From contig OZ251994.1 in the NCBI GenBank assembly GCA_965246925.1, positions 1,060,557 to 1,124,556 of the forward strand: DNA of 64,000 nt, read 5' to 3'. Below, one piece after another: positions 5,944-56,086 of the stretch. How positions within the stretch are numbered: the first letter of the stretch is position 1; each line of letters begins with the position of its first letter. The notes under the pieces are model-generated. The model ran no database searches. It saw nothing but the letters and a program-made list of their open reading frames with translations, and was not told the origin of the DNA. This DNA is from Acetobacteraceae bacterium (GTDB lineage Bacteria; Pseudomonadota; Alphaproteobacteria; Acetobacterales; Acetobacteraceae). The position numbers and the translations under genes are program-made.

Positions 5944-5948
5944 GGAAA

Positions 5949-7175
5949 TCAAAGCGAACCCCCCTTACGGCCGATCGCAGCGCCCAAACGGAGGCGCAGC
6001 GCATTCAGCTTGATGAAACCCTGCGCGTCGAACTGGTCATACGCGCCCTGATCGTCCTCGAACGTGACGGTCTTGCTCGAATAAAGGCTATGCGGGCTGT
6101 CCCGCCCGACGCAGCTCACGTTACCCTTATACAGCTTCATGCGCACCTCCCCGGTGACGCTCGCCTGGCTCGCGTCGATCGCAGCCTGCAGCATCCGGCG
6201 CTCCGGGCTGAACCAGAACCCGTTATAGATCAGCGCGGCGTAGCGCGGCATCAGATCGTCCTTCAAATGCGCCGCCTCCCGGTCCAGGGTGATGCTCTCG
6301 ATCGCCCGGTGCGCCGCGAGCCAGATCGTGCCGCCCGGCGTCTCATACACGCCGCGGGACTTCATCCCGACGTAGCGGTTCTCCACCAAATCCAGCCGGC
6401 CGATGCCGTTATCATGGCCGAGCTGGTTCAGCGTCGAGAGCAGAGACGCCGGGCTGAGCCGGACGCCGTCGATGGACACGGGGTCCCCCTGCTCGAACCC
6501 CACGCGGATCACCGTCGCGCGGTCCGGCGCGTCCTCGGGCCGGATGGTGCGCTGATACACGAACTCGGGCGCCTCTTCGGCCGGGTCCTCGAGCACCTTG
6601 CCCTCGCTCGAGCTGTGCAGGAGGTTGGCGTCCACGCTGAACGGCGCCTCCCCCATCTTGTCGCGGCTGACGGGGATCTGGTTCTGCTCGGCGAATTCCA
6701 GCAGGCGGGTGCGGCTGGTGAGGTCCCATTCGCGCCAGGGCGAGATCACCTTGATATCGGGGCGGAGCGCGTAATAGGCGATCTCGAACCGGACCTGGTC
6801 GTTGCCCTTGCCGGTGGCCCCGTGCGCCACGGCGTCCGCACCCACCATCTCGGCGATCTCGATCTGCCGCTGAGCAATCAAGGGCCGGGCGATGCTGGTG
6901 CCCAGTAAGTATTGGCCTTCATACACGGTGTTGGCGCGGAACATCGGGAAGACGAAGTCGCGCACGAAGGTCTCACGCAGGTCATCGACGAAGATCTCCT
7001 TCACGCCGAACATCTCGGCCTTGCGCCGCGCCGGCTCCAGTTCTTCGCCCTGACCGAGGTCGGCGGTGAACGTCACGACCTCGCACTGGTAGTTGGTCTG
7101 CAGCCACCGGAGGATCACGCTGGTATCGAGCCCGCCGGAATACGCCAGCACGACCTTCTTCACGTCCTTCTGCAT
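5949..7175 (-). CDS. argG: Argininosuccinate synthase
   Basis: 408 aa. [18 protein letters not shown]-binding motif and full-length similarity to type-I ArgG. Confidence 0.97.
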
Positions 7176-13501: not shown

Positions 13502-14767
13502 TTACTTACTATAGCTGATCCGATAGATCGCCCCGGCCCAGTCATCCGCAATCAAGATCGAGCCGTCTTTGGCCTGAATGATGTCCGCCGGGCGACCGCT
13601 ATAGTCCTGATCGCCGGTCAGCCAACCCTGGGCGAATACCTCCTGCCGGGCATTCTTGCCGTCCGCATCGACCACGACCCGCTCGATCCGGGCACCCTGA
13701 TATTTGTGCCGGTTCCAGGACCCGTGCTCGGCCACGAAGATATTGTTCTTATACTCGGCCGGGAACATGTCGCCGGTGTAGAACTTCATGCCCAGCGGCG
13801 CGACGTGCGCGCCAAGGTTCACGACCGGGGGCGTGAACTCACTGCATTTATGTCCGCGGGCGAACTTGGGGTCCGGCAGGTCACCCTGGTGGCAATAGGG
13901 ATAGCCGAAATGCTCGCCGATCTTGGTGATGTGGTTCAGCTTGTCGCTGGGAATGTCGTCGCTCATCCAGTCCCGCGCGTTCTCGGTAAACCAATACTCG
14001 CCCGTACGCGGATCGATATCGCCGCCCACGCTGTTGCGCACACCGAGCGCCACGATTTCCGCCAGGCCCGTCTTGGGATCCACCCGGCGGATCTGCGACA
14101 GGCTCGTGGGGGCGATGCCGACGTTGAACGGGGGGCCAAACGGCAAATACATTTCACCGGAGGTCTTGTCCGTCACGATGTATTTCCAGCCATGCGCCAC
14201 ATAGGACGGCATGTCGTCATAGGCGACGACCGGGGCCGGCATGTGATCCAGATTGGCTTCCGGGTTGTCATAGCGCAGCAGCTTGTCGATCGCGACCACG
14301 TACAACGATCCGTCCCGCACCGCGAGACCGGTGGGCATATTGAGGCCCTTCAGAATGGTCTTCACACTCTTAGTGCCGTCGGTGCCCGTTGTCACAGCAT
14401 AGACGTTGGTGGCGTTATACGAGCCCACGAACAGGGTGCCGTTGTCACCCCACGCCATCTGCCGCGCCTCGGGTAAGCCGGAGGCATAAACCTCGATCTT
14501 GAAGCCGGCGGGAAGGGTGATCTTCTTGAGATTGTCCTGCAGCTCCGCCAATGGCGTGGGGGTGGCGGGTCCAGAGGGCGGGGCGAGGCCCTTCATGCTT
14601 TCGGTTTCGTCACCAAGGAACCAATCCGGCGGCGGCTTCTGCCAGAAGCTGGGCTTGCTGCTGTCATAGCTTTTCAGGTCTGCGGCATGCGCCGCGGTGA
14701 CACAGAACCCGGCGATCGCCAGGGAGGCGAGCGCGGTGGTCGAACGCGCCAGGAGTATCGTTTTCAC
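13502..14767 (-). CDS. PQQ-dependent sugar dehydrogenase (sorbosone dehydrogenase family)
   Basis: Beta-propeller-type sequence with GEHFGYPYCHQG and RNSVGGDIDPRTGEYWFTENARD motifs. GTG at 14767 behind GGAG gives a signal peptide (VKTILLARSTTALASLAIAGFCVTAAHA). The ORF could extend to 14809. Confidence 0.8.
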   Translation of the reverse strand: MKTILLARSTTALASLAIAGFCVTAAHAADLKSYDSSKPSFWQKPPPDWFLGDETESMKGLAPPSGPATPTPLAELQDNLKKITLPAGFKIEVYASGLPEARQMAWGDNGTLFVGSYNATNVYAVTTGTDGTKSVKTILKGLNMPTGLAVRDGSLYVVAIDKLLRYDNPEANLDHMPAPVVAYDDMPSYVAHGWKYIVTDKTSGEMYLPFGPPFNVGIAPTSLSQIRRVDPKTGLAEIVALGVRNSVGGDIDPRTGEYWFTENARDWMSDDIPSDKLNHITKIGEHFGYPYCHQGDLPDPKFARGHKCSEFTPPVVNLGAHVAPLGMKFYTGDMFPAEYKNNIFVAEHGSWNRHKYQGARIERVVVDADGKNARQEVFAQGWLTGDQDYSGRPADIIQAKDGSILIADDWAGAIYRISYSK

Positions 14768-14941
14768 GATGTTGGGCTCCGCTTCCTCGATGCGCGGCTT
14801 GATTGCCACGTCCCGGTTAACGGATCATGGGCCCGGTTGTATTGCAACACTAACTCACGCCACCGCCGTTATTTTTCGGGTGAGGGTTGCGTTCCTTGGC
14901 GCGAGGGCCATTTCGATTCGCGACCGCTCCTTTGTTTCCGC

Positions 14942-15166
14942 CTAGGATTTTGCAGAATGTTTGGGGGCTGCCGGGCCGTGGCGGCCGGAGGGGCGGGTGC
15001 CGCCGTCGGGTGGGCCTTGGTGGGCGCCGCTGTCGTTCTTGCCCTTCTGCTGCGCCTTCTCCTTGGCGTCGTGATGGTGCGTCTCTGGCTTGTCGGCATT
15101 CTGCTTGCTGCTGCCCGGTCCGCCTACGGTGCGGTCGGCGTGTTCGGTCTTGGTGTTCGTCATCAT
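14942..15166 (-). CDS. Small hydrophilic low-complexity protein
   Basis: An AGGAGG SD lies 5 nt upstream of ATGATG (MMTNTKTEHADR...). Lys/His/Gly-rich, 74 aa. Four other ORFs overlap here, so coding status is uncertain. Confidence 0.45.
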   Translation of the reverse strand: MMTNTKTEHADRTVGGPGSSKQNADKPETHHHDAKEKAQQKGKNDSGAHQGPPDGGTRPSGRHGPAAPKHSAKS

Positions 15167-15216
15167 CGGTCCTCCTGCGGGCACAACGCCTCAGACCGCA
15201 TCCGGATTGGCGGCCA

Positions 15217-15513
15217 TCACTCGTTGAAGTAAGCATCGATATCGCGTCGGCCGTCGAGCACGTTGATGATCTCTATGGTGCCCTCTTTGTATGTGAACAA
15301 AATAACATAGCCTTTGTATGCCCAACTTCGCATGTTTGGTAGCAATTCCGCCCTAGAGCGCCCCAGCGTTCCAGGAAGGGTTGCAATATTCTGGCATTGC
15401 TGACGGAGCTCGTTGGTGAAAGTAACGGCCCGGGTCGGATTATCGCGACCGATATACTCTAAGATTGCCTCGAGATCAGCGCTGGCAGCCTCCCGAAACA
15501 GAAGGTTACGCAT
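15217..15513 (-). CDS. parE: Type II toxin, ParE/RelE family
   Basis: 98 aa. The FREAASADLEAILEYIGRDNPTRA ... YVILFTY pattern is typical of ParE. Overlaps the upstream antitoxin by 8 nt. Confidence 0.85.
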   Translation of the reverse strand: MRNLLFREAASADLEAILEYIGRDNPTRAVTFTNELRQQCQNIATLPGTLGRSRAELLPNMRSWAYKGYVILFTYKEGTIEIINVLDGRRDIDAYFNE

Positions 15514-15757
15514 CCCTGCTCAAGCCGAGCGCCAGCGCACGCCTTTCGAGCCTGCGGCCAACCTCCTCATCACTGATGGATGGACGGGGATCGTTGATGG
15601 ATGCTAGCAGCGTCGCCCGCAACGCCTCCAGCTTCGCCTCCCGTTCCTGCACGAGCCGCAAGCCTTCGCGGACGACTTCGCTGGCGGAGGCGTAGCGGCC
15701 GCTCTTGACGGCAGCCTCGACAAATCCCTCTAGACCGTCGCCAATCGATACGTTCAT
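15506..15757 (-). CDS. parD: Type II antitoxin, ParD family (ribbon-helix-helix)
   Basis: 83 aa. GRYASASEVVREGLRLVQERE is the ParD/CopG-type RHH signature. Confidence 0.8.
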   Translation of the reverse strand: MNVSIGDGLEGFVEAAVKSGRYASASEVVREGLRLVQEREAKLEALRATLLASINDPRPSISDEEVGRRLERRALALGLSRDA

Positions 15758-15840
15758 GAATGCCCTCCAAGCCTTGCAACCTTCTTATAACAAAGAATGC
15801 ACGATCTTTGTCATCCGATTTTGCCCAAAGGAGACCGGAC

Positions 15841-17040
15841 ATGCCTGAGGCCTTCATCTGCGACGCCATCCGCACCCCCATCGGACGCTACGCCGGCGCA
15901 TTGAAGGACGTCCGGGCCGATGATCTTGCGGCAAACCCCATCCGGGCCCTCATCGCCCGCAATCCGGGCGTGGATTGGGAGCAGCTGGACGACACCATCA
16001 TGGGCTGCGCCAATCAGGCCGGAGAGGATAACCGCAACGTGGCGCGAATGGCGACGCTTCTGGCCGGCCTTCCCCTCACCGTGCCCGGCGCCACCGTCAA
16101 CCGGCTCTGCGGCTCCGGCCTCGACGCCATCGGCACCGCCGCTCGTGCCATCCGCGCCGGCGAGGCCCATCTCATGCTCGCCGGCGGCGTGGAGAGCATG
16201 ACCCGCGCCCCGTTCGTCATGGCGAAATCGACCGAGGCCTTCGCCCGGCAGGCCGAGATCCACGACACCACCATCGGCTGGCGCTTCGTGAACGGCCTCA
16301 TGAAGACCATGTACGGCACCGACAGCATGCCTGAAACCGGCGAGAACGTGGCCGAGCAGTTCCAGATCACCCGCGCCGCCCAGGACGCGTTCGCGCTGCG
16401 CAGCCAAGAGAAATGCGCCGCCGCTCAAGCATCCGGCTACCTCGCCGCCGAGATCGCCCCCGTCACCATCAAGGGCCGCCGCGGCGACACGGTGGTGGAC
16501 CGGGACGAACATCCCCGCGAAACGACGCTGGAGGCCCTGGCCGCGCTCAAGACGCCGTTCCGCACGCCGGGCACGGTGACGGCCGGGAACGCGTCGGGCG
16601 TGAATGACGGCGCGGCCATGCTGATCCTCGCCAGCGAAGACGCCGCCCGGCGCCACGGCCTCACGCCCCGCGCCCGGGTGGTCGGCATGGCGACGGCCGG
16701 GGTGGCGCCGCGCATCATGGGCGTGGGCCCGGTGCCCGCCGTGCAGAAGCTGCTGGCCCAGACCGGCCTCACGCTGGGCGAGGTCGACGTCATCGAGCTG
16801 AACGAGGCCTTCGCCGCCCAGGCGCTGGCCGTGTTGCGGCAGCTCGGCGTGGCCGACGACGACCCGCGCGTGAACCCGCACGGCGGGGCGATCGCGCTGG
16901 GCCACCCGCTCGGCGCATCCGGCGCCCGCCTCGCCATGACGGCGGTGCACGCGCTCCAAACCACCGGCGGCCGCCGCGCCATTATCACGATGTGCATCGG
17001 CGTCGGTCAGGGCATCGCAGCGTTGGTGGAGCGGGTCTAA
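15841..17040 (+). CDS. pcaF: 3-oxoadipyl-CoA / acetyl-CoA C-acyltransferase (thiolase)
   Basis: MPEAFICDAIRTPIGRYAGALKDVRADDLAA is typical of PcaF/PaaJ. NRLCGSGL active-site Cys and C-terminal CIGVGQG are present. AAGGAG SD precedes ATG 15841. PcaF versus PaaJ cannot be resolved here. Confidence 0.9.
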   Translation: MPEAFICDAIRTPIGRYAGALKDVRADDLAANPIRALIARNPGVDWEQLDDTIMGCANQAGEDNRNVARMATLLAGLPLTVPGATVNRLCGSGLDAIGTAARAIRAGEAHLMLAGGVESMTRAPFVMAKSTEAFARQAEIHDTTIGWRFVNGLMKTMYGTDSMPETGENVAEQFQITRAAQDAFALRSQEKCAAAQASGYLAAEIAPVTIKGRRGDTVVDRDEHPRETTLEALAALKTPFRTPGTVTAGNASGVNDGAAMLILASEDAARRHGLTPRARVVGMATAGVAPRIMGVGPVPAVQKLLAQTGLTLGEVDVIELNEAFAAQALAVLRQLGVADDDPRVNPHGGAIALGHPLGASGARLAMTAVHALQTTGGRRAIITMCIGVGQGIAALVERV

Positions 17041-44078: not shown

Positions 44079-46235
44079 CTAGTTCTTGGTCTGGCTCGGG
44101 CGAGCGAAGAAGTCGGCAGGAGGCGGATTGCTGAGGCCCAGCTGCGTATCGAGCGGTGTGATGCCCAGCGCGGTGCAGCCCGCGCCGTTATAGTGCGGCA
44201 GCGTCAGGACCGTCGTCATGTCGATCATGGCGTAGCTGGCCGGCAGCGGCGCCGCGGTGCCGAGTAGGCGGGCCGGGTCGAATGCGCTCAGCAACGCGCC
44301 CTGACCCGGCGTCGGGTTCTGCACGCCGTCATGCGGCCCCAGCTGGGTCTGCGTCACGCCCGCGGTCGCGAACCGTGCCGCCTGCCCCGCCACCTTGGCC
44401 GTCGCCTCGTCCGGCAAATCCGCCAGCGGGTTCAAGCCGAAGACCGAGTTCACGAGGCCGATGACCGAGTTGTGGTCACCCTCCTCATGGCTCACCACGT
44501 GGGCGCGGGCGAAGGGGGAGATCACGATCATCGGGATGCGCGGACCGCGGCTGAGCGGCAGGCCCGCCGGGTCATAGGACAGGATACGCGGTGGCACGTG
44601 ATCGTAGTCGCCCTCGCTCTCGTCATACGTGATGACGATGGCGCTCTGGCTCCAATACGGGCTGGCGGCGATGGCGTTGATCTGGCTCGCGACCGCCGCC
44701 TCGCTGATCTGGCTGTCGGAATAGGCCGGGTGGTCGTCGTCACCCAGGAAGTTGGCCGAAACGTAGGCCGCGTCCGCCGCCGGGGTGACCGCACCGAAGC
44801 CGGTGGCGTTGGCCGTGTTGGGCACGAGGCCCTGGATGTTGTCGTACCCGCCGCGCACGTAGAACACGCCGCCCGATGGCGGCAGCGCCTGGTTCTGGAC
44901 ATCGGCGAAGAAGTCGCCCAGCCCGTGCTGGTTCGCGGCCTCGGCCGGGTTGTTCGTCACGTAGCCGAAATACTGCGGGCCGTTGTGATGGCCGATGTAG
45001 CTGGAGTGCGGGGTCGATGCGATGCCGTTGGCCGCCGGCAGGTTCGGCTCCGCATTGTATCCGTTCTGGTACCAGCCCCATTTATAGCCGGGCGTGTTCT
45101 TGGTCATGATGGCCTGCAGGTCGCTCTGCACATCGGCCAGGTCGGCGCCGGGGTTGGTGTCGGTCGCGGTCATCTGCATCACCGTCCGGCCCGCCAAGGT
45201 GAGCGGCAGGCTGGCGAAGGTGAGGTTCGGCGCCACGTTGCTGGCCGCGCCGAACTCGTTCTTGCGCTGCGGCGTGCCCGTGGCTGCGCCGGTGTTAGCC
45301 GTTGCGACCAGATTGGTCGGCTGGCTCGGGTTGCCGGAATACTCCACCGTGCCGGCACCCGGTAGCCCAGGGATCGGGTCGTTCACGATCGGCACCGCGA
45401 TCGAGCCGAAGGTCGTCGCGGACGTCGTTTCCGGGTGCTTCACCCACTGCGTCTCGCCCGCCTGCCCGGCGATCATCGCGATCGCGTTCGGCGTGGACGG
45501 GCCGACCGTGGTCTGGAAGATGTTGTCGAACAAGGTGAACCGGTTGGCATAGTTCCACAGGAATGGGATAGTATCGCAATCGACATACCCCATCGCGAGC
45601 TGCCCCCACTGCTTGGACGCAAGCGTGGGCGCGGCCGGGATCTGTGCCGCCGTGGGGTTGATCGGGGAGCCGGGGAACCGCTTGGCCTGCTCGTTCAGCG
45701 CGAAGCGGTCCATCAGCGGCGTGCCAGTGCCGCCCGGCAGGTTCATCTTGGCGGCCATGCGGGTGTGGCTATGGTCCACGTCATCGAGGTCGGACGCGTT
45801 CTGCGCCGTGCCCATCCGGAACGGAGCGATCGTGCCCGCCGTCCCATCCGTGTTGTATAGCACCTGCGTGTTGCTACGCGCGGCCGGGGTGCGGAGCCGG
45901 GGCGTGGCGGACGCATCCGCATACAGGCCGTTGGCGCCCGGGAAGGTGCCGAAATAATGGTCGAAGGAGCGGTTCTCGCTGAATAGCACGAACACGTATT
46001 TGACCCGGTGCCGCAAGAGGCTGATCAGCTGCGCGTTGCTGAGGTTGGTGTCGGACGCAGGGTCGCGGAACACGCCCTGGATGGCCGGGCTAAAGCCGGA
46101 CGCGGCCGTCAGCGGCTGGGCCGTCACCACAGGCGTCGAGGCCGTCAGCGCATAGGCGGGGGCCGCCAGCATCGGCTGCAACAGGGAGGCGGCCGCGATC
46201 CAAGCCGTAGTTGACTTCAACAGCATCCGTCGCAT
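44079..46235 (-). CDS. Phosphoesterase family protein (phospholipase C / AcpA acid phosphatase family), exported
   Basis: VKYVFVLFSENRSFDHYFGTFPGANG is the hallmark of the PLC/AcpA phosphoesterase family. 718 aa with a signal peptide. Confidence 0.85.
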   Translation of the reverse strand: MRRMLLKSTTAWIAAASLLQPMLAAPAYALTASTPVVTAQPLTAASGFSPAIQGVFRDPASDTNLSNAQLISLLRHRVKYVFVLFSENRSFDHYFGTFPGANGLYADASATPRLRTPAARSNTQVLYNTDGTAGTIAPFRMGTAQNASDLDDVDHSHTRMAAKMNLPGGTGTPLMDRFALNEQAKRFPGSPINPTAAQIPAAPTLASKQWGQLAMGYVDCDTIPFLWNYANRFTLFDNIFQTTVGPSTPNAIAMIAGQAGETQWVKHPETTSATTFGSIAVPIVNDPIPGLPGAGTVEYSGNPSQPTNLVATANTGAATGTPQRKNEFGAASNVAPNLTFASLPLTLAGRTVMQMTATDTNPGADLADVQSDLQAIMTKNTPGYKWGWYQNGYNAEPNLPAANGIASTPHSSYIGHHNGPQYFGYVTNNPAEAANQHGLGDFFADVQNQALPPSGGVFYVRGGYDNIQGLVPNTANATGFGAVTPAADAAYVSANFLGDDDHPAYSDSQISEAAVASQINAIAASPYWSQSAIVITYDESEGDYDHVPPRILSYDPAGLPLSRGPRIPMIVISPFARAHVVSHEEGDHNSVIGLVNSVFGLNPLADLPDEATAKVAGQAARFATAGVTQTQLGPHDGVQNPTPGQGALLSAFDPARLLGTAAPLPASYAMIDMTTVLTLPHYNGAGCTALGITPLDTQLGLSNPPPADFFARPSQTKN

Positions 46236-47284: not shown

Positions 47285-47323
47285 TGGTGCTAACGGATGG
47301 TGCTAACGGGTGATGCTAACGGG
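47285..47323. repeat. 13-bp tandem repeat x3
   Basis: TGGTGCTAACGGA / TGGTGCTAACGGG / TGATGCTAACGGG. It lies immediately upstream (minus strand) of the SD of the 46320..47273 gene and covers the stop of the 47316..47891 gene. Confidence 0.85.
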
Positions 47324-47891
47324 CAGAAATCTGCGGCGGGCCGGGGTTGCCCGCGCGGAGCGACGCCACGCTCGGGACGGCCGCGAAGATGGCCGGATTG
47401 ACCGGGATGGGCGCCATCGCGTCGAAGCTCGGCCGCACTGTGCGCATGCCCTGCGCTCCCTCGAGCGTCACCTGCCCTGGCCTAATGTCCCGGACCGTCA
47501 TTCCCGCAATCACCGCACCCTCTTGCACCAGCAGCGGCTTGCCAGCCGGTCCGGCAAAGATGGCGCGGCGGACCGCACCATCGATCAGTACGCCCGTCAG
47601 GCGTGGTAACGGCAGGGCAACGGCGGCAGGTGCGGCGGCCACGACGGCCGGTGCGGGCGGCCGCCGGGCAGGCGAGAACAGCGGACGATCCAGCATCGCC
47701 GCCTGCCACTCGGCAACAGGAGCCGGACGCCCGGGCCGGGCTGCCACGTCCGGGATCACCGCGGCCGGCAAGGGCTGCTCCCTTGTATCTGCCGGCCCGC
47801 TAGGGTCGCGCAGCTCTAGGGCAAGGCCGCCCGCCAGCAAGGCCGCAAGCGCGGCCAGCACGGTAAGGCGGACGGGAGGCTGAGCCAGCAT
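47316..47891 (-). CDS. Single-pass membrane protein, GspC/PilP-like C-terminal segment
   Basis: N-terminal TM, Pro/Ala-rich linker, then LTGVLIDGAVRRAIFAG...PLLVQEGAVIAGMTVRDIRPGQVTL, a pattern seen in GspC-HR/PilP-type domains. Weak assignment. Confidence 0.5.
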   Translation of the reverse strand: MLAQPPVRLTVLAALAALLAGGLALELRDPSGPADTREQPLPAAVIPDVAARPGRPAPVAEWQAAMLDRPLFSPARRPPAPAVVAAAPAAVALPLPRLTGVLIDGAVRRAIFAGPAGKPLLVQEGAVIAGMTVRDIRPGQVTLEGAQGMRTVRPSFDAMAPIPVNPAIFAAVPSVASLRAGNPGPPQISAR

Positions 47892-47960
47892 GATGACGTC
47901 CTACGACGAAGCCTCTTCCGGGTAAGCCGCAGTTCCATGACAAATCGTGAAACCGTCATA

Positions 47961-47990
47961 CACAGGTGAACCGTGCCCGGATAACCTGTG
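47961..47990. promoter_or_regulatory. Inverted repeat (candidate operator) upstream of the metallophosphoesterase-SPFH-ATPase genes
   Basis: CACAGGT-N16-ACCTGTG, embedded among three GTGAA(A)CCG direct repeats at 47947, 47966 and 48005. Confidence 0.25.
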
Positions 47991-48015
47991 CACCTCATTT
48001 CGTGGTGAACCGGCA

Positions 48016-49467
48016 ATGGCGCGTGTAGTATTGGGCTTTGGCAGTGCGGCAATGGCCTGCATTCTCGTAACCGCCCCGGCCCGGGCGGACGTGATCAACC
48101 AATGGGTTCAGTTCGCGCCCGATAATACGGTCCTGCTTCGCGCGATCGAATCTCTGCCCGCCAATGGCTGCCCGGCCGCTACGGTGGACGGCGCCTCCGT
48201 CACGCTGTCCCCCCGCGGTGACGTTACCACCCCGGCCACGGCGCCCCTCACATCCTATCCGGTCCTCATGTGCGAAAGCGCGCCGCTGCCGGCCTTCGGC
48301 CATAGCTCGGCCAGCGTCGCGGGTGTTCCGCTCAAGATGCCGGTGGCCAACCCGCGCCGCATCATGTTCATCGGCGACACGGGCTGCCGCGTCGCCGCCA
48401 CGCTGACCGGCACGCAGAATTGCAATGACCCGGCGCAGTTCCCGCTCAACTTCCTGGCCAACTACGCCGCCACGTTCCAGCCGGACCTCATCGTCCACAC
48501 CGGTGACTTCTTCTACCGCGAGCAGCCGTGCCCCACCGGCTTCACCGGATGCGCCGGGACCCCCGCTTTCGACAACTGGGACTCCTGGTATGCCGACTGG
48601 TTCGGCCCGGCGAAAAGCCTGATCCAGGCCGCCCCGCTCGCACTGTCCCGCGGCAATCACGAAAGCTGCAACCGCGGCGCCCGCGGCTGGTTCCGCCTGT
48701 TGGACGTGCACGCCTACGACGCCAATGCGGTGAACTGCACCGGACCCTACACGCCCATGGCGGGCGCGCCCGGCGCCAAGGGACCGCTCACCCCTTATGA
48801 CTACACCCCGCCCTATACCGTAAATGCGGGCCAGGTCACTCTGCTGATGTTCGACTCGAGTGACAGCAATACCAGCGCGGTCGATACCACGACCCTTTCG
48901 ACCGACGGACGGACGGTGAAGCAGATCTATACCGCGCAGCTGACTGCCGCACTGGCCCCGCTATCGGGCGCCAACGTATTCTATGTGACGCACAAGCCCA
49001 CCTATGATATCCGCCCAGCCAAGGTGAACGGCAACCTGGCGGGAGGCGACTATACGCAGCAATCCGTGTTCGAAGGCATAAGCCCCGGCGGCGTGCCCGC
49101 CCCGATCAAGCTATTGGTCTCCGGCCATGATCACCAGTTCCAGATGGTCAATTTCGGCGCCAACTATGCGCCGCAGCTAGTGGTGGGCAACTCGGGCACG
49201 CTGCTGGACAACAACTCCGGCGCGCAGCCGCAGGCGTTCACGCCGGACGTCACTGGCACCAACAACGGCGCCACCTACGCCCTGCCCGGCGTCGCGCTGA
49301 CCGCCACCACGACCATCCGCGCTACCGCGGACCGTTCCGAATACGGCTTCACGGTGATGGACGCCATCAACAATGGCTATGTGGCGAACGTGTATAACCT
49401 CGCCTCCAACAAGCTCGCCCGCTGCGTCATGACGCTGTATCCGCGCAGCATGGCCTGCACCCCCTAG
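48016..49467 (+). CDS. Secreted calcineurin-like metallophosphoesterase
   Basis: Signal peptide MARVVLGFGSAAMACILVTAPARA. Metallophosphoesterase motifs IGDTG, GDFFY, GNHE and GHDHQF occur in order. Confidence 0.8.
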   Translation: MARVVLGFGSAAMACILVTAPARADVINQWVQFAPDNTVLLRAIESLPANGCPAATVDGASVTLSPRGDVTTPATAPLTSYPVLMCESAPLPAFGHSSASVAGVPLKMPVANPRRIMFIGDTGCRVAATLTGTQNCNDPAQFPLNFLANYAATFQPDLIVHTGDFFYREQPCPTGFTGCAGTPAFDNWDSWYADWFGPAKSLIQAAPLALSRGNHESCNRGARGWFRLLDVHAYDANAVNCTGPYTPMAGAPGAKGPLTPYDYTPPYTVNAGQVTLLMFDSSDSNTSAVDTTTLSTDGRTVKQIYTAQLTAALAPLSGANVFYVTHKPTYDIRPAKVNGNLAGGDYTQQSVFEGISPGGVPAPIKLLVSGHDHQFQMVNFGANYAPQLVVGNSGTLLDNNSGAQPQAFTPDVTGTNNGATYALPGVALTATTTIRATADRSEYGFTVMDAINNGYVANVYNLASNKLARCVMTLYPRSMACTP

Positions 49468-49469
49468 CA

Positions 49470-51311
49470 GTGAACGCCGTCCACCCAGTCATCGCAGAGG
49501 AAAACACGGTCACAACCCCGTCCTGGCCCAATACGGCCGGGACGGTCCGGCTGTTGCGCCGCCTGCTGACACTCTACCTCCTGGCCGCATCAGCGCTGAT
49601 AGCCGCAGGGTTGACGATGCATCCGCTGGCGGCCGAGGCGCGGCAGTCAGGCCTGCTCGGCGTGGCGGTCGCCGGGCTGACCCTGGCCGCCGCAGGCCTT
49701 GCCGCATGCTTGATCATGGCCCAGGCCCGGCACCGCGCCGGGACGTTCGATCCGGACGCGCTTTCCGCATTGGGCCGTATGGCGCGGCGTCCGCAGGGCG
49801 TGGTGATCCCTGTGCTCACCGGCCTCGCCATGGCAGCAGCCTGGGCCGGGCGGGCGCACGCGCCGGACCTATATGCCCAAGCGGCGCTGCTGGGCGGCGG
49901 CATGATCGTGCTCACCTTCCCGCTGCTGGTGGCCGAGCGGATGGTGGCCGGCCTATCGCCGCTGGCCTTACCCGAAGCGCCTTCGCTACAGGCGCTGATG
50001 TTCGTCCCCGTGCTGACTTGGCCGCTCGCGGGGACCCTGCATATCCTGGGCTCGCTCGGCCTGCCTTGGGCGGGCGGACTGATGGCGGTGCCGGCGCTGA
50101 TCACCGGCGTAGCCGCGCTCGAACTCATGGTCCGCTCCTTGGCGGTATGGTTCATGCTGCCGCCCAGCCCGCTGCTGGCCCGGGCCGCCATCGCCAGCCT
50201 GTCCGCCGCGCTGCTGCAGCCCGGACGGCTGGCCGGGTCCGGACTGGCATCCCCGGTGCAGACCCATCTCGGTATCGACTTCTCGCGCAGCTGGGCGCTG
50301 CGCTATCTCAGCGGCGCGGTTCTGCCGGTGGCGGCGCTGGTGGCGCTGCTGGCCTGGGGCCTGACCGGCGTGGCGTTGGTGCCGCTGGACCGCCGGGCGG
50401 TGTATGAACGGCTGGGCGTGCCGGCGTCCATCTGGCAGCCTGGCCTGCACGCGGGCCTGCCGTGGCCGCTCGGCCAGGCGCGGATAGTGGAGATGGGCGT
50501 CGTCCACGCCGTACCGCTCGGCGCCAGCCTGCCCGGCGCGGCCGGCCCCGCCGAGGCGTTCGCGCCGGAGGGAGCCGACCGGCTTTGGGACCAGCCGCAC
50601 CCCGGCGAAATCGCCCTCCTGACTGCAAGCCAGGGCAGCACCGGTGAGCAGGGGTTCCAGAGCGTGAACGTGGACCTCACGGTCCTGTACCGCTTCGCAC
50701 TGGATGATCATGGCGCGCTCGAAGCGGCCTATGCGCAGAACGATCCGGACCAGCTCGTCCGTTCCGAAGCCAGCCGGCTCCTGGTGCAGCTCTGCGCCGG
50801 GCGCACGCTCGACAGCCTGCTAGGCGAAGACCGCGCCAGCGTCGCCGGCGGCGTAGGCCTGGCGCTCGGCCAGGAGCTGGAACGGCTCGGCAGCGGCATC
50901 GAGCTGTTGGGCATCGAGATCGAGGCGATCCACCCGCCCGCCAGCGCCGCCAGCGCCTATCACGCGGTTCAGGCCGCCGGCATCGTCGCCAGCACGGCGA
51001 TCGCGACCGAGGCCGGGCGCGCCCAAGCCGCCGCCAGCCTATCCCGCCAACAGGCCGCCACCCTTATGGACGAAGCACGCGCTAGCGGGGCCGAAGCCGT
51101 GGGCGCGGCGGAAGTCGGCTTGCGGCAGTTCACCGCCGACCACGCCGCCGATAGCGAGGCGTTCCGGCTGGAGCGCACCCTTGCCAACCTGTCATCCGCC
51201 CTGCCCCGCATGCCCCTGATCATCATCGATCACCGGCTGCAGGGTGCGTCCGCCCCCGTCATCGACCTCCGCCCCGGTAACGCCCCCTCCGGCGCCCCGG
51301 CGGACGAGTAG
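49470..51311 (+). CDS. SPFH/Band-7 (HflK-like) protein fused to a ~310-aa polytopic N-terminal membrane domain
   Basis: GTG start 2 nt after the upstream stop. Multiple TM segments, then an SPFH pattern (RRAVYERLGVPASIWQPGLHAGLPWP ... GIELLGIEIEAIHPP). Confidence 0.75.
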   Translation: MNAVHPVIAEENTVTTPSWPNTAGTVRLLRRLLTLYLLAASALIAAGLTMHPLAAEARQSGLLGVAVAGLTLAAAGLAACLIMAQARHRAGTFDPDALSALGRMARRPQGVVIPVLTGLAMAAAWAGRAHAPDLYAQAALLGGGMIVLTFPLLVAERMVAGLSPLALPEAPSLQALMFVPVLTWPLAGTLHILGSLGLPWAGGLMAVPALITGVAALELMVRSLAVWFMLPPSPLLARAAIASLSAALLQPGRLAGSGLASPVQTHLGIDFSRSWALRYLSGAVLPVAALVALLAWGLTGVALVPLDRRAVYERLGVPASIWQPGLHAGLPWPLGQARIVEMGVVHAVPLGASLPGAAGPAEAFAPEGADRLWDQPHPGEIALLTASQGSTGEQGFQSVNVDLTVLYRFALDDHGALEAAYAQNDPDQLVRSEASRLLVQLCAGRTLDSLLGEDRASVAGGVGLALGQELERLGSGIELLGIEIEAIHPPASAASAYHAVQAAGIVASTAIATEAGRAQAAASLSRQQAATLMDEARASGAEAVGAAEVGLRQFTADHAADSEAFRLERTLANLSSALPRMPLIIIDHRLQGASAPVIDLRPGNAPSGAPADE

Positions 51312-51317
51312 AGAACC

Positions 51318-52346
51318 ATGCACCTGCACAACCACGATCACGCCCATCACGACCACGGCCATCACGGACACGGCCATCACGGACACGGCCACGATGGCCC
51401 GGCGCCGGGCAGGACGCGGGTCTTCCTGCGCTTCCTGGGTGCCGGCCTCGTTCTGGCCGCGGCAGTGTTCGCCTCCTGCTCGGTCATCGTGCCCGCCGGG
51501 CAGGCGGTGGTGGTGACGCGGTTCGGGGACCTCAGCCGCGTCCTAGTGTCTCCCGGCCTCGCCTGGAAATGGCCCGCGCCAGCCGAGACGGGCATTTCGG
51601 TCGATCTTCGCCTCCGCACCACCTCCACCGGCCTGCAGGACGTCGGCACCAAGGACGGGCTCCGCATCCTGGTGCAAGCCTTCGTCGCCTGGCAGGTCCC
51701 GGCCGACCCCGGCGCCATCCGCACCTACCTCCGCGCCGTGCGCGAGCCGGACGAGGCGGCGCGCCAGCTGCGGAGCCTCACCGGCGCCGCCCTGCAGGTG
51801 ACCGCCAGCGGGTTCGACTTGCAGGATCTGGTCGATACCGACACCGGACGCCAGCGCCTACCGGCGTTCGAATCCCGCCTCCTGGAACAAATCCAGCGCC
51901 AAGCCGCGGAAGTGTATGGCGTCAAGATCGTGCAAGCCGGGATCGAACGCCTGAGCCTGCCGGACGCCACCCTCGCCGCCACCGTGTCCCGCATGCGGGC
52001 CGAGCGGGAGACGGCCGCCGCCGCCCGCACGGCGGAGGGGCTGCGCGCCGCCGCCGAACTCCGCTCCCGCGCCACCAGCGAGTCCCGCATCCTGGTCGCC
52101 CACGCCCGGACGGAGGCGGCCGGGATCGAGGCCGCCTCCCGCCAGCAAGCCGCCGCCATCCAGTCCCACGCCTACGCGATCGATCCGGAGCTGTATGCCA
52201 TGCTCCGCTCCCTCGATACGCTCGGTAGCGTCGTCGGCCCCAACACGCGCATGGTGCTCCGTACGGACTCGGCGCCGTTCAACATGCTCATCGGGCCGCC
52301 CCGCACCACCCCGGCCATCGGCGCTGCGACCGCGAGCGCGCCGTGA
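51318..52346 (+). CDS. SPFH/Band-7 (HflC-like) protein with His-rich N-terminus
   Basis: MHLHNHDHAHHDHGHHGHGHHGHGHDG, then a TM segment, then an SPFH pattern (GQAVVVTRFGDLSRVLVSPGLAWKWP ... VKIVQAGIERLSLP). Confidence 0.8.
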   Translation: MHLHNHDHAHHDHGHHGHGHHGHGHDGPAPGRTRVFLRFLGAGLVLAAAVFASCSVIVPAGQAVVVTRFGDLSRVLVSPGLAWKWPAPAETGISVDLRLRTTSTGLQDVGTKDGLRILVQAFVAWQVPADPGAIRTYLRAVREPDEAARQLRSLTGAALQVTASGFDLQDLVDTDTGRQRLPAFESRLLEQIQRQAAEVYGVKIVQAGIERLSLPDATLAATVSRMRAERETAAAARTAEGLRAAAELRSRATSESRILVAHARTEAAGIEAASRQQAAAIQSHAYAIDPELYAMLRSLDTLGSVVGPNTRMVLRTDSAPFNMLIGPPRTTPAIGAATASAP

Positions 52347-53377
52347 ACCCGGGTGGCGAGAACTCGAATGGTGAACCGGCGGGCCCTATCGTCCAGGCCA
52401 TCACCACCGCCTTCCGCGCCGTATGGGCGGCTGTGTTCCTGCTTGCGGCCGGCTGGGCCGCCTCGAGCTGGCGGCAAGTCCCGGCGGACAGCCAGGCCGT
52501 GATGCTGCGGTTCGGCCGGGTCGTGGGGGTGCAGCAGGCCGGGCTCGCCCTATCCTGGCCGCGCCCCATCGGCGGCATGGCATTGGTGCCGGGCCGGGCG
52601 CGCCAGCTCACGCTACGCACCCAGGCCACCGCCCGGCGGGAGGGGCTATCCGACCTGTTCACCCAGGCCTCGGGCGCCGAACTGCCCGACGGCGCCGGCA
52701 GCTATCTCACGGGTGACGGCAGCGTCGTACTGCTATCGGCCGACATGACCTATCAGGTGACGGATGCGGAGCACTATTACCTCGCTCAGGATCACGTGCC
52801 CCCGGCACTGCAGCGCGTGTTCCAGGCCAGCGCCATCGCCATCCTCGCCCGGCTCGACCTGGATGACGTCCTGGTCGCCCGCCCGGACCGGCAGACGCCG
52901 GAGCAAGCCGCGGCGGCGGAAGACCGGCGGCGCGGGCTGCGCGATGCCATCCTGGCCGAGATGAACCACCGGCTGGCGCCCCTGTCCCTGGGTGTCGAAA
53001 TCAGCCGGCTCGACCTCGACCCGGCGCTTCCGCCCGCCGCGAAGATCGCTTTCGACGGGGTGCTGGTATCGGTGCAACTGGCCGAGCAAGCGATTGCCGC
53101 AGCGCGGACCGAGGCGCTGCGTATCGCCCAGGCCGCCGGCCGGGAGCAGGACCGGCTCATGGACGCCGCCCGGGCCGGCGCCGCCGAGCGGGTGAGCGAA
53201 GCCTCACGCCAGACCGCCCCTATCCTGGCGCTAGAGGCCGGCATGACCGCCGCCACCCGGCCCGCGATCCTCGATCACGCCTACCGCGACGGGCTCGCGG
53301 CGTTCATGCCAAGGGTGGGCCGGGTCATGGCCGTCGATGCCCAGGGCACCCGCATCCTGTTGCCCGGCGCGCCATGA
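52343..53377 (+). CDS. SPFH/Band-7 (HflK-like) protein
   Basis: 4-nt overlap with the upstream gene. A TM segment, then QAVMLRFGRVVGVQQAGLALSWPRP ... LGVEISRLDLDPALPP. Confidence 0.75.
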   Translation: MNPGGENSNGEPAGPIVQAITTAFRAVWAAVFLLAAGWAASSWRQVPADSQAVMLRFGRVVGVQQAGLALSWPRPIGGMALVPGRARQLTLRTQATARREGLSDLFTQASGAELPDGAGSYLTGDGSVVLLSADMTYQVTDAEHYYLAQDHVPPALQRVFQASAIAILARLDLDDVLVARPDRQTPEQAAAAEDRRRGLRDAILAEMNHRLAPLSLGVEISRLDLDPALPPAAKIAFDGVLVSVQLAEQAIAAARTEALRIAQAAGREQDRLMDAARAGAAERVSEASRQTAPILALEAGMTAATRPAILDHAYRDGLAAFMPRVGRVMAVDAQGTRILLPGAP

Positions 53378-53469
53378 GCGCGCCCCTTCAAGTTATGGCC
53401 GCGCCATGAGCGCGCCCCTTCAAGTTACGGCCGCGCCATGAGCGCGCCCCTTCACGTCACGGCCACGCC
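53374..53469 (+). repeat. 32-bp tandem repeat x3 (plus a partial fourth copy forming the ATPase start)
   Basis: ATGAGCGCGCCCCTTCAAGTTA(T/C)GGCCGCGCC at 53374, 53406 and 53438 (the third copy has 4 substitutions). Each copy reproduces the CCATGA stop/start junction. Confidence 0.9.
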
Positions 53470-55353
53470 TTGAGCGCGTCCGCCTCCATCGCCGCGCCGC
53501 TGCTAGCCTGGCGGGAGCGGGGGGCGCTCGCGGTGCAGCTCACGCTCGCGCTGCTGGCCGCCGGGCTGCTGATCCTGGCCGTGCTGTGGCAGGCGCTGGT
53601 GCCGGAGGGGCGCGCCCTGTCCGACCTCGTCGCCGGCGGCGCGGCGCTGCTGGTGGCCGTCCCGGTCATCACTGCCGCCTGGGACAGCCTCCGCCACCCC
53701 AGCCTCCATGGCGTCACCGACCGGCTGATCAGCATCGCGCTGGTGGCCGCCTGGGCCAGCGGCGACCTCATGACCGCCGCCGTTCTGCCGATCATCATGA
53801 TCCTGGGCCACGTGCTGGAGGAGCGCAGCCTGCTCGGCTCCCGCGAAGCCATCCGCGCGCTGGGCCGGCTCGCGCAGACCGAAGCGCGGCGGATCGGCCC
53901 GGACGGCGCCGTCACGCCCGTCGCCACCAAGGAGCTGCGCCTAGGTGACCGCGTGCTGCTGCTGGCCGGTGACCAGCTGCCGGCGGACGGCATCATCCGG
54001 GACGGAGAGGCCAGCCTCGACATGGCCTCCCTGACCGGGGAGAGCGTGCCGGTGGACGTGGGCGTGGGTTACGCCGCGCTGGCCGGCTCTATCAACACCA
54101 ACGGACGGCTCGAGCTCGAGGTGACGCGCCTGGGCGCGGACACGACGCTGGGCAAGATCATCGCCCTCATGCGCGATGCGGAGCGGGCCAAGCCGCCCGT
54201 GTCCCGCCTGCTGGAGCGGTATGCCGGGCACTATATGGCGCTGGTGCTGCTGATCGCGGCCGGCACGTGGTTCGCCACCAATGACACCGCCGCGGCGCTG
54301 GCGGTCCTAGTCGCGTCCTGCCCCTGCGCGCTGGTGCTGGCAGCACCCGCCACCTCCATCGCCGCCATCGCCGTCGCGGCCCGGCTGGGCATCCTGATCA
54401 AGGGCTCCGCCTTTCTCGAGCAACTGGCCGAGGTCACCTCCGTGGTGTTCGACAAGACCGGCACGCTCACCACCGGTGAGCTGACGTTGCTCACCTTCGA
54501 GCCGGCGCCCGGCACCGATGCGGAATGGGCGCTCCCGCTCGCGGCGGCGCTGGGCGCAGCCAGCAACCATCCCGTCAGCCGCGCCGCCGCCCGCGCCGGG
54601 TCCGGCTGGCGTCCGCATCTGGACAACATTCATGAGGCCAGCGGCTTCGGCGTGAGCGCCACGGTCGATGGCGTTGGCGCCTCCATGGGCCGCCCGGAGA
54701 TGTTCGCCGATCTGGACCCTGGCCCGCCGCCCGCCCATGACGGCCCGATCGCCGGGCTGGGCTTTGGCGGCCGCTTCCTGGGCTGGCTGCTATTCGCCGA
54801 CCGCCCCCGCCCGGAATCCCGCGCCGCCATCCTGGAGCTGCGCGCCTTGGGACTCGACCGGCAGGTCCTGCTGACCGGGGACCGCGCGGCAGTGGCGGAG
54901 CGCGTGGGCGCCGAACTCGGCATCGCCGACATCTGCGCCCAAGCCTTGCCGCAGCAGAAGATGGCCCGCGTCCTGCAAGAGATCGCGTCCGGCTATAAGC
55001 CCATGGTGGTCGGCGACGGCATCAACGACTCGCTGGCGCTGAAGGTGGGCGCGGTGGGCGTGGCCATGGGCGCGCAGGGCACGGACGTGGCCCTGGCCTC
55101 GGCCGACCTGGTGCTCATGACGAGCGACCTGCGCCGGCTCGCGACCTGTATCCGCCTGAGCCGCCGCTGCCGCCGCACCATTCATGTGAACGTCGCCGTG
55201 GGGCTCGGCTGGACCGGGGTATTGATCGCGCTGGCGGCGTTCGGCGCTTTGGGGGCGGAGGGCGCAATCATCGCCGCCCTGCTGCACAACCTCAGCACCT
55301 TCATCGGCCTCGGCAATGCCGGGCGGCTGCTGCTGTTCGATGAGCCGCTTTGA
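53470..55353 (+). CDS. P1B-type (heavy-metal) P-type ATPase lacking an N-terminal metal-binding domain
   Basis: TGES, CPC (ASCPCALVLAAP), DKTGTLT, SNHP and GDGINDS are all present. 627 aa, beginning directly in membrane segments. TTG start at 53470. Confidence 0.9.
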   Translation: MSASASIAAPLLAWRERGALAVQLTLALLAAGLLILAVLWQALVPEGRALSDLVAGGAALLVAVPVITAAWDSLRHPSLHGVTDRLISIALVAAWASGDLMTAAVLPIIMILGHVLEERSLLGSREAIRALGRLAQTEARRIGPDGAVTPVATKELRLGDRVLLLAGDQLPADGIIRDGEASLDMASLTGESVPVDVGVGYAALAGSINTNGRLELEVTRLGADTTLGKIIALMRDAERAKPPVSRLLERYAGHYMALVLLIAAGTWFATNDTAAALAVLVASCPCALVLAAPATSIAAIAVAARLGILIKGSAFLEQLAEVTSVVFDKTGTLTTGELTLLTFEPAPGTDAEWALPLAAALGAASNHPVSRAAARAGSGWRPHLDNIHEASGFGVSATVDGVGASMGRPEMFADLDPGPPPAHDGPIAGLGFGGRFLGWLLFADRPRPESRAAILELRALGLDRQVLLTGDRAAVAERVGAELGIADICAQALPQQKMARVLQEIASGYKPMVVGDGINDSLALKVGAVGVAMGAQGTDVALASADLVLMTSDLRRLATCIRLSRRCRRTIHVNVAVGLGWTGVLIALAAFGALGAEGAIIAALLHNLSTFIGLGNAGRLLLFDEPL

Positions 55354-55417: not shown

Positions 55418-56086
55418 ATGAAATTCTGGACTATCCCTGCGCTTGCCCTCCTGCTCGCAGCGGCCCCAGCCGCGGCTACGACCCTCACCAGCAGCCTCTC
55501 GGCATTCCAGGCCGGCGCGGGCGCGGTGACCGTGACCCGGCTCACGGGCCTGTATGACCCCACGGCGCTGATCCTGCCGGTGGTGAGCAGCGTTCCATTG
55601 AGCGGCGGCGGCAGCCTGGCCGTGAACCAATCGGTGCAGATCGTGCAGACCCCGGCGGGCGGCGGCGGCTTCCCCTACACTCTGACGGACGGTTTCAACG
55701 GTGACCTGCTGATCCCGGTGGATGCCAGCGGCAACCAGCTGACGTCGGAGACCATCAACACCGCCGGGCTCAGCGGATTGGGGATCGAGGTCGCGCCGTT
55801 CTCCAGCAGCTTGGGTGGCCCCTACACCATCACGATCACGGGCTCGAACGGCCAGACGCTATCCACGGCCGCCCCCGGCGGCAGCTTCGCCACCGGCGCC
55901 ACCGCCCCGGTCTTCCTAGGCTTCTTCGGCGGCGGCGTGAGCACGATCACCATCAGCACCACCGACCCGAACGGCTTCGCCTTCGGCAATATCCGCACCC
56001 CGGCGCCCGTCCCCGAGCCCGCCTCCCTAGCCCTACTCGCCGCCGGCACGCTCGCCCTCTACACCGCCCGCCGCCGTTACCTCTGA
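55418..56086 (+). CDS. PEP-CTERM sorting-domain protein
   Basis: Signal peptide MKFWTIPALALLLAAAPAAA. C-terminal VPEPASLALLAAGTLALYTARRRYL. Confidence 0.8.
   Translation: MKFWTIPALALLLAAAPAAATTLTSSLSAFQAGAGAVTVTRLTGLYDPTALILPVVSSVPLSGGGSLAVNQSVQIVQTPAGGGGFPYTLTDGFNGDLLIPVDASGNQLTSETINTAGLSGLGIEVAPFSSSLGGPYTITITGSNGQTLSTAAPGGSFATGATAPVFLGFFGGGVSTITISTTDPNGFAFGNIRTPAPVPEPASLALLAAGTLALYTARRRYL

Follow-up and report, generated by a model that had tools for sequence, protein, structure and literature searches.

The window analysed here is a stretch of 64,000 nucleotides (nt) from an Acetobacteraceae bacterium (contig OZ251994.1, forward strand, positions 1,060,557 to 1,124,556; G+C ~68%). It carries a block of five co-directional genes at 48016-55353, here called g1 to g5, which encode a phosphatase, three SPFH proteins and a P1B-type ATPase. 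A sequence-only reading of this DNA had singled out the block as a candidate for an undescribed module in which three SPFH paralogues scaffold or gate a metal pump. The junctions re-read as it gave them: 2 nt, 6 nt, a 4-nt overlap and 92 nt. Its domain assignments also hold in profile searches with Pfam and NCBIfam, namely Metallophos in g1, Band_7 in g2, g3 and g4, and E1-E2_ATPase plus Hydrolase in g5. Since the products of g2, g3 and g5 are present with identical sequences in public annotation, independent annotation has picked the same starts for these genes. The features, with lengths in amino acids (aa), are:

47892-48015, plus strand: upstream intergenic region, the presumed promoter of the block, with a partial match to a motif of related loci
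48016-49467, plus strand: g1, from ATG to TAG, 483 aa, a secreted metallophosphoesterase of the purple acid phosphatase (PAP) type
49470-51311, plus strand: g2, GTG start, 613 aa, 2-nt spacer after g1, a fusion of a transmembrane (TM) domain and SPFH, orthologue of PA2439 of Pseudomonas aeruginosa
51318-52346, plus strand: g3, ATG start, 342 aa, 6-nt spacer, an HflC-like SPFH protein with a His-rich N-terminal tail, orthologue of PA2438
52343-53377, plus strand: g4, GTG start, 344 aa, 4-nt overlap with g3, an HflK-like SPFH protein, orthologue of PA2437
53368-53478, plus strand: tandem-repeat junction between g4 and g5, period 32 according to Tandem Repeats Finder (TRF)
53470-55353, plus strand: g5, TTG start, 627 aa, 92-nt spacer, a P1B ATPase of the HmtA type
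55418-56086, plus strand: g6, a PEP-CTERM protein, 64 nt downstream of g5

No PADLOC model matches any of the proteins g1 to g5, so a reading of the block as a defence system was rejected, and an Rfam search of the window returned nothing.

The block has a wide distribution. At least 396 homologues of g2 measure 600-690 aa, and a scan of one genome per species found a g2 relative in at least 481 species. The hosts include Acetobacteraceae, Bradyrhizobium, Rhizobium, Xanthobacteraceae, many Pseudomonas, Janthinobacterium, Solimonas, Steroidobacteraceae and Bryobacteraceae, and the module spans Alpha-, Beta- and Gammaproteobacteria and Acidobacteria. The sequence-only reading had staked its case on the SPFH genes and the ATPase staying together in related genomes, and they do: among the loci with at least 4.3 kb of sequence after g2 (n = 69), orthologues of g3, g4 and g5 follow g2 in every one, with order and strand unchanged. 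A recurrence in 69/69 loci puts the arrangement far outside what chance would produce. Stop/start overlaps of 4 nt join g3 to g4 in 65 of 77 loci and g4 to g5 in 67 of 75, which favours joint synthesis of the products. Conservation is highest in the ATPase (55-80% identity) and next highest in g3. No neighbour beyond the four core genes is common across lineages, and the phosphatase g1, counted as part of the block in the sequence-only reading, accompanies the core in no more than about 22 loci, all Acetobacteraceae-type. The comparative evidence therefore strongly supports the view that the SPFH trio and the HmtA-type pump form one real, tightly and translationally coupled module, with a core of four genes rather than five. 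In Rhizobium tumorigenes, the annotation of a plasmid-borne copy goes no further than HflK, SPFH, SPFH and heavy-metal ATPase.

It had also been stated that no characterised system has this architecture. This does not stand, since the same core is found in P. aeruginosa as PA2439-PA2435 (paFlo5-7 plus hmtA), a cluster that is bound by Zur and induced by zinc depletion and whose ATPase has been studied. A search with the Pseudomonas nitroreducens ATPase of locus L050 led to P0214, an ATPase of the P. aeruginosa group at the PA2435 position. It is 62% identical to g5 over 591 aa (641 bits), and both carry ASCPCALV and LLHNLST and lack an HMA domain. In three loci of the P. aeruginosa group (L083-L085), a Band_7 protein of 665 aa, a protein of 343-349 aa, a Band_7 protein of 346 aa, a protein of 144 aa, an ATPase of 660 aa and a DUF4946 protein follow one another. 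GCV_T, serine-dehydratase and SHMT domains flank them on one side, and LysR, PPK2, an ECF sigma factor and a thioesterase on the other; these are presumably gcvT2/sdaA/glyA2 and bexR...pvdS of the PAO1 map. Because their composition matches the table of Pederick 2015 (PMC4542158), the three loci are taken as PA2439-PA2434. The identities to the P. aeruginosa-group orthologues are 43% for g2, 58.5% for g3 and 39% for g4. The three SPFH genes stand before the ATPase in the same order in the window, in L083-L085 and in 69/69 loci: first the long protein with the polytopic N-terminal domain, then the one with the His/Asp tail, then the plain one. By gene order, g2 is the counterpart of PaFlo5. On gene order and sequence identity, the core of the window is an orthologue of the hmtA cluster, and its architecture is already on record.

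Among P1B ATPases, HmtA is the textbook exception in that import has been claimed for it. The phenotypes of its overexpression reportedly come from Lewinson 2009. Overexpression raises the cellular Zn and Cu content together with Zn and Cu sensitivity, which is read as import in two papers (PMC10393844; PMC8456098). The sequence-only reading, by its analogy with a metal-binding domain (MBD), had implied efflux; according to these secondary sources, the published direction for HmtA is import under zinc scarcity. Three published findings on the P. aeruginosa cluster concern zinc. First, PA2435 and PA2437-PA2439 are up 5.6- to 14-fold in a znuA mutant (Pederick 2015, PMC4542158). Second, the proteins of this cluster rise under zinc depletion (PMC11761036). 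Third, the PA2439 promoter is shifted by Zur, only with zinc (PMC8531726). A 2026 paper names the SPFH genes paFlo5-7 (PA14_33070/33080/33110) and describes them as one operon, and it mentions neither the ATPase nor metals (PMC13086221). Other transcriptome and proteome papers, one of them PMC11761036, call the SPFH genes FtsH modulators, by annotation.

The class of the pump was considered next to the nearest structures. TIGR01525 matches g5 with 491 bits and E1-E2_ATPase with 157 bits, in addition to Hydrolase. As previously described, TGES, DKTGT, HP, GDGIND and CPC can be read in the protein, and Pfam finds no HMA domain in it. Eight TM helices are predicted, with CPC (ASCPCALV) in M4 and HNLST (LLHNLST) in M6, and there is no His-rich N-terminal tail. 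The family invariants CPC, NV, HN..T and NAGRLL are kept across 69 ATPase orthologues, with ASCPCALV and LLHNLST conserved in at least 95% of them. The best sequence matches in the PDB are sCoaT (7qbz, 247 bits) and ZntA (4umv, 224 bits), and g5 carries the full signature of neither class. The P1B-4 pump sCoaT shares the P1B core and the eight helices, and its HEGST aligns with HNLST of g5, but it combines SPC with HEGST where g5 combines CPC with HN..T; in this alignment the P1B-4 (CoaT/CzcP-type) signature is absent from g5. The P1B-2 pump ZntA shares the core, the eight helices and CPC. It differs in having an HMA domain, a Lys in M5 and an Asp in M6, the latter two of which we take to be its metal ligands. 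In the alignment of g5 with 4umv, GLK of ZntA stands opposite GWT and LADTGAT opposite LHNLSTF, which places Thr and Asn at the Lys and Asp positions; with the HMA domain lacking as well, g5 shows only CPC of the P1B-2 (ZntA/CadA-type) signature. The protein also scores far below the cutoffs of the equivalog models NF008262 and NF033775.

These data bear on an alternative in which g5 would be, as automatic annotation has it, an ordinary exporter for Cd/Zn/Co detoxification, with the SPFH genes as general partners in membrane stress. Such a function would agree with the score against TIGR01512, the model for cadmium-family P1B ATPases (453 bits, above cutoff), with the CPC motif and with the name of the orthologues, "cadmium-translocating P-type ATPase". 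However, the replaced Lys and Asp and the missing HMA domain argue against it, as do the Zur binding of the P. aeruginosa cluster and the rise of its expression when zinc is depleted (PMC4542158, PMC11761036, PMC8531726). Moreover, overexpression sensitises to Zn and Cu rather than protects, according to one source (PMC10393844), and other loci show Zur-like sites and uptake-type neighbours. We consider plain detoxification very improbable.

The genomic surroundings elsewhere point the same way. In 20 of the 84 loci used for motif and neighbour counts, a Zur-like palindrome GTTATA-N3-TAAC lies no more than 125 nt upstream of g2, a density of 0.77 per kb compared with a background of 0.03 per kb; its carriers are nearly all Pseudomonas loci plus one Janthinobacterium locus. 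Metal-uptake genes adjoin the module in unrelated lineages. A ZIP transporter gene stands directly beside it in L058 (811-1554), an ABC-3 (ZnuB-type) permease gene preceded by a 233-aa open reading frame (ORF) in L066 (1074-2530), and NicO genes in L070 (15673-16770) and L068 (12208-13269). In L061 (6381-9531) a set of ABC_tran, FtsX and DUF3299 genes is chained by overlaps to g2. The uptake-type neighbours and the Zur-like sites together suggest metal acquisition or economy rather than detoxification.

The window itself presents a different upstream region. The palindrome does not occur upstream of its block, the gamma-type Zur pattern TGTTATAWTATAACA gives 0 matches in the window at up to 3 mismatches, and the Paracoccus-type pattern GTAAYRTAATAACAT gives one chance-level match, at 15294, 33 kb upstream of the block. 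A sigma-70 consensus scan of the upstream region 47892-48015 found nothing, and a promoter and terminator scan found nothing above chance. Pho boxes, looked for by eye, were dropped for inconsistent spacing. In a promoter alignment, related Acetobacteraceae loci share a motif made up of ACCGTAGCCTAAnnTTCACAG and, about 20 nt further on, GTATGAT or GTATAAT; it lies upstream of g1 in L005, L007, L008, L011, L012 and L013, and the window holds a diverged copy of it at 47960-48000.

The three SPFH proteins are members of the SPFH/Band 7 superfamily, with Band_7 scores above the gathering score in all three and the fold modelled for g2. Band_7 matches g2 at residues 306-515 with 48.2 bits (Pfam gathering score 23.6), g3 with 101.7 bits and g4 with 54.3 bits. 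The best family models are those of the FtsH modulators: TIGR01932 (hflC) scores 89 bits with g3 (cutoff 134.4), and TIGR01933 (hflK) scores 61 bits with g4 and 39 bits with g2 (equivalog cutoff 159.4). These scores of 39-89 bits fall short of equivalog cutoffs of 134-159, and the trio are paralogues of HflK and HflC and not the modulators themselves. An AlphaFold2 model was made for one member of the trio, g2 (pLDDT 76.9). Its SPFH part, with a 70-residue helix, matches HflK/C (7vhq_E, E = 2.9e-10), and the model also matches cage subunits of stomatin, erlin and prohibitin.

The likeness could mean that the trio serves as an alternative HflK/HflC set whose task under metal stress is to cage and modulate the zinc metalloprotease FtsH, with the ATPase co-regulated and not a client. 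Besides the best family models and the fold match to HflK/C cages, this would suit the usual annotation in P. aeruginosa and the role assumed in the published transcriptome and proteome papers. In addition, a gene for an FtsH paralogue (FtsH_ext, AAA, Peptidase_M41) adjoins the module in L030 (7311-9185), where it lies 180 nt upstream on the same strand and follows a His_Phos_1 gene, and in L079 (15503-17332). In L047 (19234-21063) one lies 3.5 kb from the module. The FtsH-adjacent loci include one from Bryobacteraceae and one from Steroidobacteraceae. But FtsH is adjacent in just 2-3 of the 84 loci, whereas the ATPase gene overlaps the last SPFH gene in the large majority, and the family scores stay below the HflK and HflC cutoffs. 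In addition, the polytopic domain of g2 has no counterpart in HflK, and P. aeruginosa has a separate canonical hflK/hflC pair whose phenotypes are not copied by the paFlo5-7 triple deletion (PMC13086221). An FtsH-caging role thus appears quite unlikely, if less so than plain detoxification.

The first SPFH protein had been described as carrying a polytopic domain of no known family, and this description was borne out. Seven TM helices are predicted in residues 1-300 of g2, for which Pfam gives no match even at E<=5 and a fold search of the PDB gives nothing significant (best E = 1). The family of this domain is small: out of 1.84 billion representatives it accounts for 265 clusters, taken at 50% identity. 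In full-length matches the domain is always N-terminal in proteins of about 600-690 aa, which is the size of the fusion. Its Arg-rich loops lie at residues 84-110 and 229-282, and the latter holds the most conserved motif, LGIDFSRSW. The charge distribution suggests that these loops are cytoplasmic and that the SPFH domains are periplasmic, as in HflK/C. As a side observation, 6 of 50 weak fold matches of the domain (window 49470-50369) are CDF transporters, namely YiiP, ZnT1, ZnT3, ZnT7 and SLC30A10. A CDF zinc-transporter fold was tried and rejected: TM-scores reach up to 0.36 with E above 1, which is not significant, and no conserved His/Asp metal site of the CDF type is present.

The second SPFH protein has a His-rich start, as had been noted; it begins with MHLHNHDHAHHDHGHHGHGHHGHGHDG (DNA 51318-51398), which holds 14 His in 27 residues. 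It has one predicted TM helix, and three Arg directly before this helix suggest an N-in topology with the His tail in the cytoplasm. When 6 or more His within 25 residues of N-terminal sequence are required, 63 of 80 locus rows have a His/Asp-rich N-terminal tail on the g3 orthologue, in each case cytoplasmic with respect to the predicted TM helix. In PA2438 it takes the form of HDHDHD repeats, and in composition the tail of g3 resembles the Zn-binding DLHDHDH of PacL1. So frequent a tail makes a metal-handling role plausible. According to the sequence-only reading, the tail is the MBD missing from the pump, supplied in trans. That part of its proposal is weakened, while the trio and pump as one conserved unit stand. 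In 12 loci the tract is absent from g3 (two His at most) and from the other three proteins as well. The ATPase has a His tail of its own in P. aeruginosa, L050 and L044, and in P. aeruginosa the tracts occur on both PA2438 and HmtA. Compensation by an ATPase tail where the g3 tail is missing was considered and is not borne out across loci. Since it is absent in 12 loci with no substitute and coexists with ATPase tails, the g3 tail is a frequent accessory and not an obligatory MBD.

How could such a module work? We favour, with a probability of about 0.6, a reading in which the SPFH trio cages or stabilises the HmtA-type ATPase made together with it, in a setting of zinc economy, the window holding the Acetobacteraceae version of the module. 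By homology with HflK/HflC, the three SPFH proteins most likely form one hetero-oligomeric ring or cage, in which g3 would occupy HflC-like positions and g2 and g4 HflK-like positions. The SPFH and coiled-coil parts would lie on the periplasmic face, with the ring anchored by the N-terminal TM helices. In the manner of HflK/C with FtsH, such a cage may corral or stabilise the ATPase within a patch of membrane. The additional 6-TM domain of g2 and a ring of cytoplasmic His/Asp tails from g3 would then stand beside the cytoplasmic side of the pump, where the tails may bind Zn(II), possibly also Cu, and hand it over or receive it. The physiological setting would be the economy of divalent metals, zinc above all, under scarcity and not heavy-metal detoxification. 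In this lineage, the pump may also supply the metal of the secreted di-metal phosphatase g1, whose gene ends 2 nt before g2.

Several observations weigh against this model. In L066 (1-8186) the ATPase gene stands before g2 with two ABC-transporter genes between them, and no g3 or g4 homologue is found within 3.5 kb after g2. The 12 loci that lack the His tract have already been mentioned, as has the FtsH paralogue that adjoins the module in L030 and L079. For g4, with its one TM helix, the positive-inside rule gives no clear orientation. No Zur-type box of the gamma- or alpha-type patterns was found in the window or its close relatives. In one study hmtA mRNA was constantly low and not repressed by added zinc (PMC8531726). 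Import by HmtA rests on overexpression phenotypes, and a review asks for confirmation (PMC10393844). The paFlo5-7 triple deletion gave mild phenotypes only, in a study of which metals were not a part (PMC13086221). Finally, the literature on the cluster holds no experiment that links the SPFH proteins to the pump.

A bolder version of the caging model can be offered tentatively, with the odds against it. The module would be the first bacterial SPFH cage with a transporter as client and would make up a membrane compartment for metal handling, up to a dozen His/Asp tails would act as a trans-acting metal-binding domain at the cytoplasmic mouth of the pump, the partners might set or even reverse the apparent direction of transport, and in Acetobacteraceae the pump would feed metal to secreted phosphatases. 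If so, the SPFH partners, which are absent from heterologous HmtA experiments, would resolve the oddity of a P1B "importer".

The phosphatase is a local addition to the module. PAPs are defined by five motif blocks, GDxG, GDxxY, GNH(D/E), VxxH and GHxH, which carry seven metal ligands. Protein g1 (Pfam Metallophos, 43.7 bits) shows all five as GDTG, GDFFY, GNHE, (Y)VTH(K) and GHDH. Its metal ligands D, D, Y, N, H, H and H, all seven of the PAP type, are kept in at least 95% of 22 orthologues, as are ten Cys. A signal-like, Sec-type N-terminal peptide, MARVVLGFGSAAMACILVTAPARA, is readable in its translation. Pfam detects Metallophos and no PAP-specific domain in g1, and a sequence search of the PDB finds no relative. 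Given its distribution, g1 is a lineage-specific front gene of the operon, outside the conserved core. A second, secreted-type phosphoesterase family was observed in the vicinity. A PF04185 phosphoesterase gene (phospholipase C / acid phosphatase family) lies at window 44079-46235 on the minus strand, 1.7 kb upstream of the block. Genes of this family also stand directly before g2, on the same strand, in L017 (7491-9563) and L067 (28-2124), both Acetobacteraceae-type loci that have no Metallophos gene.

These phosphatases invite another explanation, a metallation line in which the ATPase exports a divalent metal (Zn, Mn or Fe) at low rate to g1 in the periplasm, possibly within an SPFH-bounded space, with the His tails as cytoplasmic donor. 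While it overlaps with the caging model, it commits to export as the direction and to g1 as the client. It draws on the 2-nt distance between g1 and g2, on the signal peptide, ligands and conserved Cys of g1, on the g1 orthologues in front of the module in about 22 loci, and on the PF04185 genes in the same position in L017 and L067 and nearby in the window. Moreover, P1B pumps of the CopA2/CcoI type are low-rate exporters for metalloprotein biogenesis (PMC3266609). Nevertheless, the phosphatase link is limited to Acetobacteraceae-type loci, and about 60 other loci do without it. The neighbours elsewhere are uptake systems, the rise in cellular Zn and Cu upon HmtA overexpression reads as import (PMC10393844; PMC8456098), and the co-location could reflect co-regulation only. 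We regard a dedicated metallation line as unlikely, although it has a better claim than a role in caging FtsH.

The junction between g4 and g5 is the second local peculiarity. It had been called repeat-filled, and TRF indeed reports a tandem repeat of period 32 with 3.5 copies (93% match, score 187) that spans the 92-nt gap and reaches from 53368 to 53478. The repeat yields three mini-ORFs of 11 codons, with ATG at 53374, 53406 and 53438, which translate as MSAPLQVMAAP*, MSAPLQVTAAP* and MSAPLHVTATP*; ATGA/TTGA overlaps chain them to one another and to g5, whose TTG start is at 53470. In most relatives just one ATGA overlap joins the two genes. The repeat is a triplication of the ancestral ATGA junction between g4 stop and g5 start. 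It may lower the synthesis of the ATPase relative to the scaffold, or be neutral. An independent duplication of the same junction, with ACCCCCTGAGC-like units, was seen in a related metagenome-assembled genome (L012, 13728-13824).

Downstream of the pump, g6 scores 25 bits with the Pfam PEP-CTERM model and 22 bits with TIGR02595 (cutoff 16). In at least nine Acetobacteraceae loci (L008, L009, L012-L014, L018, L024, L033 and L043), a homologue comes directly after the ATPase. As a neighbour g6 is specific to the lineage, and the transcription unit may end with it. On the other side, a 191-aa ORF at window 47316-47891 on the minus strand, divergent from g1, has no Pfam match. Its homologue in L017 (16069-16626, plus strand) overlaps the ATPase stop by 4 nt, and the ORF may be another occasional accessory of the module. 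A tandem repeat TGGTGCTAACGGA, 2.9 copies at window 47285-47322, runs from the spacer into the 3' end of this ORF, and a 21-nt unit is repeated 2.2 times inside it at 47616-47662. Elsewhere in the window, the G+C content dips at 4001-6000 (0.59) and 14001-16000 (0.61), compared with a mean of ~0.68.

The SPFH neighbours of HmtA have so far been treated as FtsH modulators or as orphan flotillins. The present comparison shows pump and trio as a single unit, coupled in translation, across several hundred species and often beside zinc-uptake genes. The association raises a direct question, whether an SPFH cage controls a metal pump, and experiments on HmtA alone may have missed its partners. The window itself holds an orthologue of a known cluster with two local twists, the attached secreted phosphatase and the triplicated junction.

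Among known systems, the hmtA cluster PA2439-PA2434 is the nearest, with the core gene order, the long polytopic N-terminal domain of the first SPFH protein, the His/Asp tail on the second and the signature motifs of the ATPase all in common. In P. aeruginosa, by contrast, a 144-aa gene separates the last SPFH gene from that of the ATPase, a DUF4946 gene follows the latter, the ATPase has a short His tail and the promoter is bound by Zur. The window differs in the PAP-type gene in front, the PEP-CTERM gene behind and the triplicated g4/g5 junction, and no Zur-type box was found in it.

The HflK/HflC-FtsH system of E. coli (7vhq, 7wi3, 9cz2) resembles the module in its paired SPFH paralogues with overlapping genes, N-terminal TM anchors and coiled coil, in the fold match to g2 and in the general idea of a cage around a membrane enzyme. 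However, the module has three paralogues instead of two, one with an additional TM domain and one with a His-rich tail, all below the equivalog cutoffs, and its gene partner is a P-type ATPase, not hfq-hflX or FtsH. The SPFH-NfeD pairs (QmcA-YbbJ, 8z5g) similarly combine an SPFH protein with a dedicated polytopic partner, and there is a weak fold match (E = 3.6e-7). In contrast to these pairs, the module has no NfeD gene, and its polytopic part is fused to SPFH and matches no known family.

Finally, the PacL1-CtpC "effluxosomes" of M. tuberculosis also place a small flotillin-like membrane scaffold in an operon with a P1B ATPase (PMC9374683, PMC13460109). PacL1 stabilises the pump in high-molecular-weight platforms (PMC9374683, PMC13460109), and its cytoplasmic DLHDHDH motif binds Zn at ~6 uM and is needed only at high zinc (PMC9374683). 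PacL proteins differ in that they are of the DUF1490 family and not SPFH, lie wholly on the cytoplasmic side, are confined to Actinobacteria and serve exporters induced by metal excess (PMC9374683), whereas the module has three true SPFH proteins that probably face the periplasm, in a setting of zinc scarcity. Pfam finds no DUF1490 domain in the proteins of the block, and the resemblance is functional only. By this functional analogy, PacL1-CtpC is the best precedent for a membrane scaffold with metal-binding tails beside a P1B pump, the idea from which the sequence-only reading had set out.

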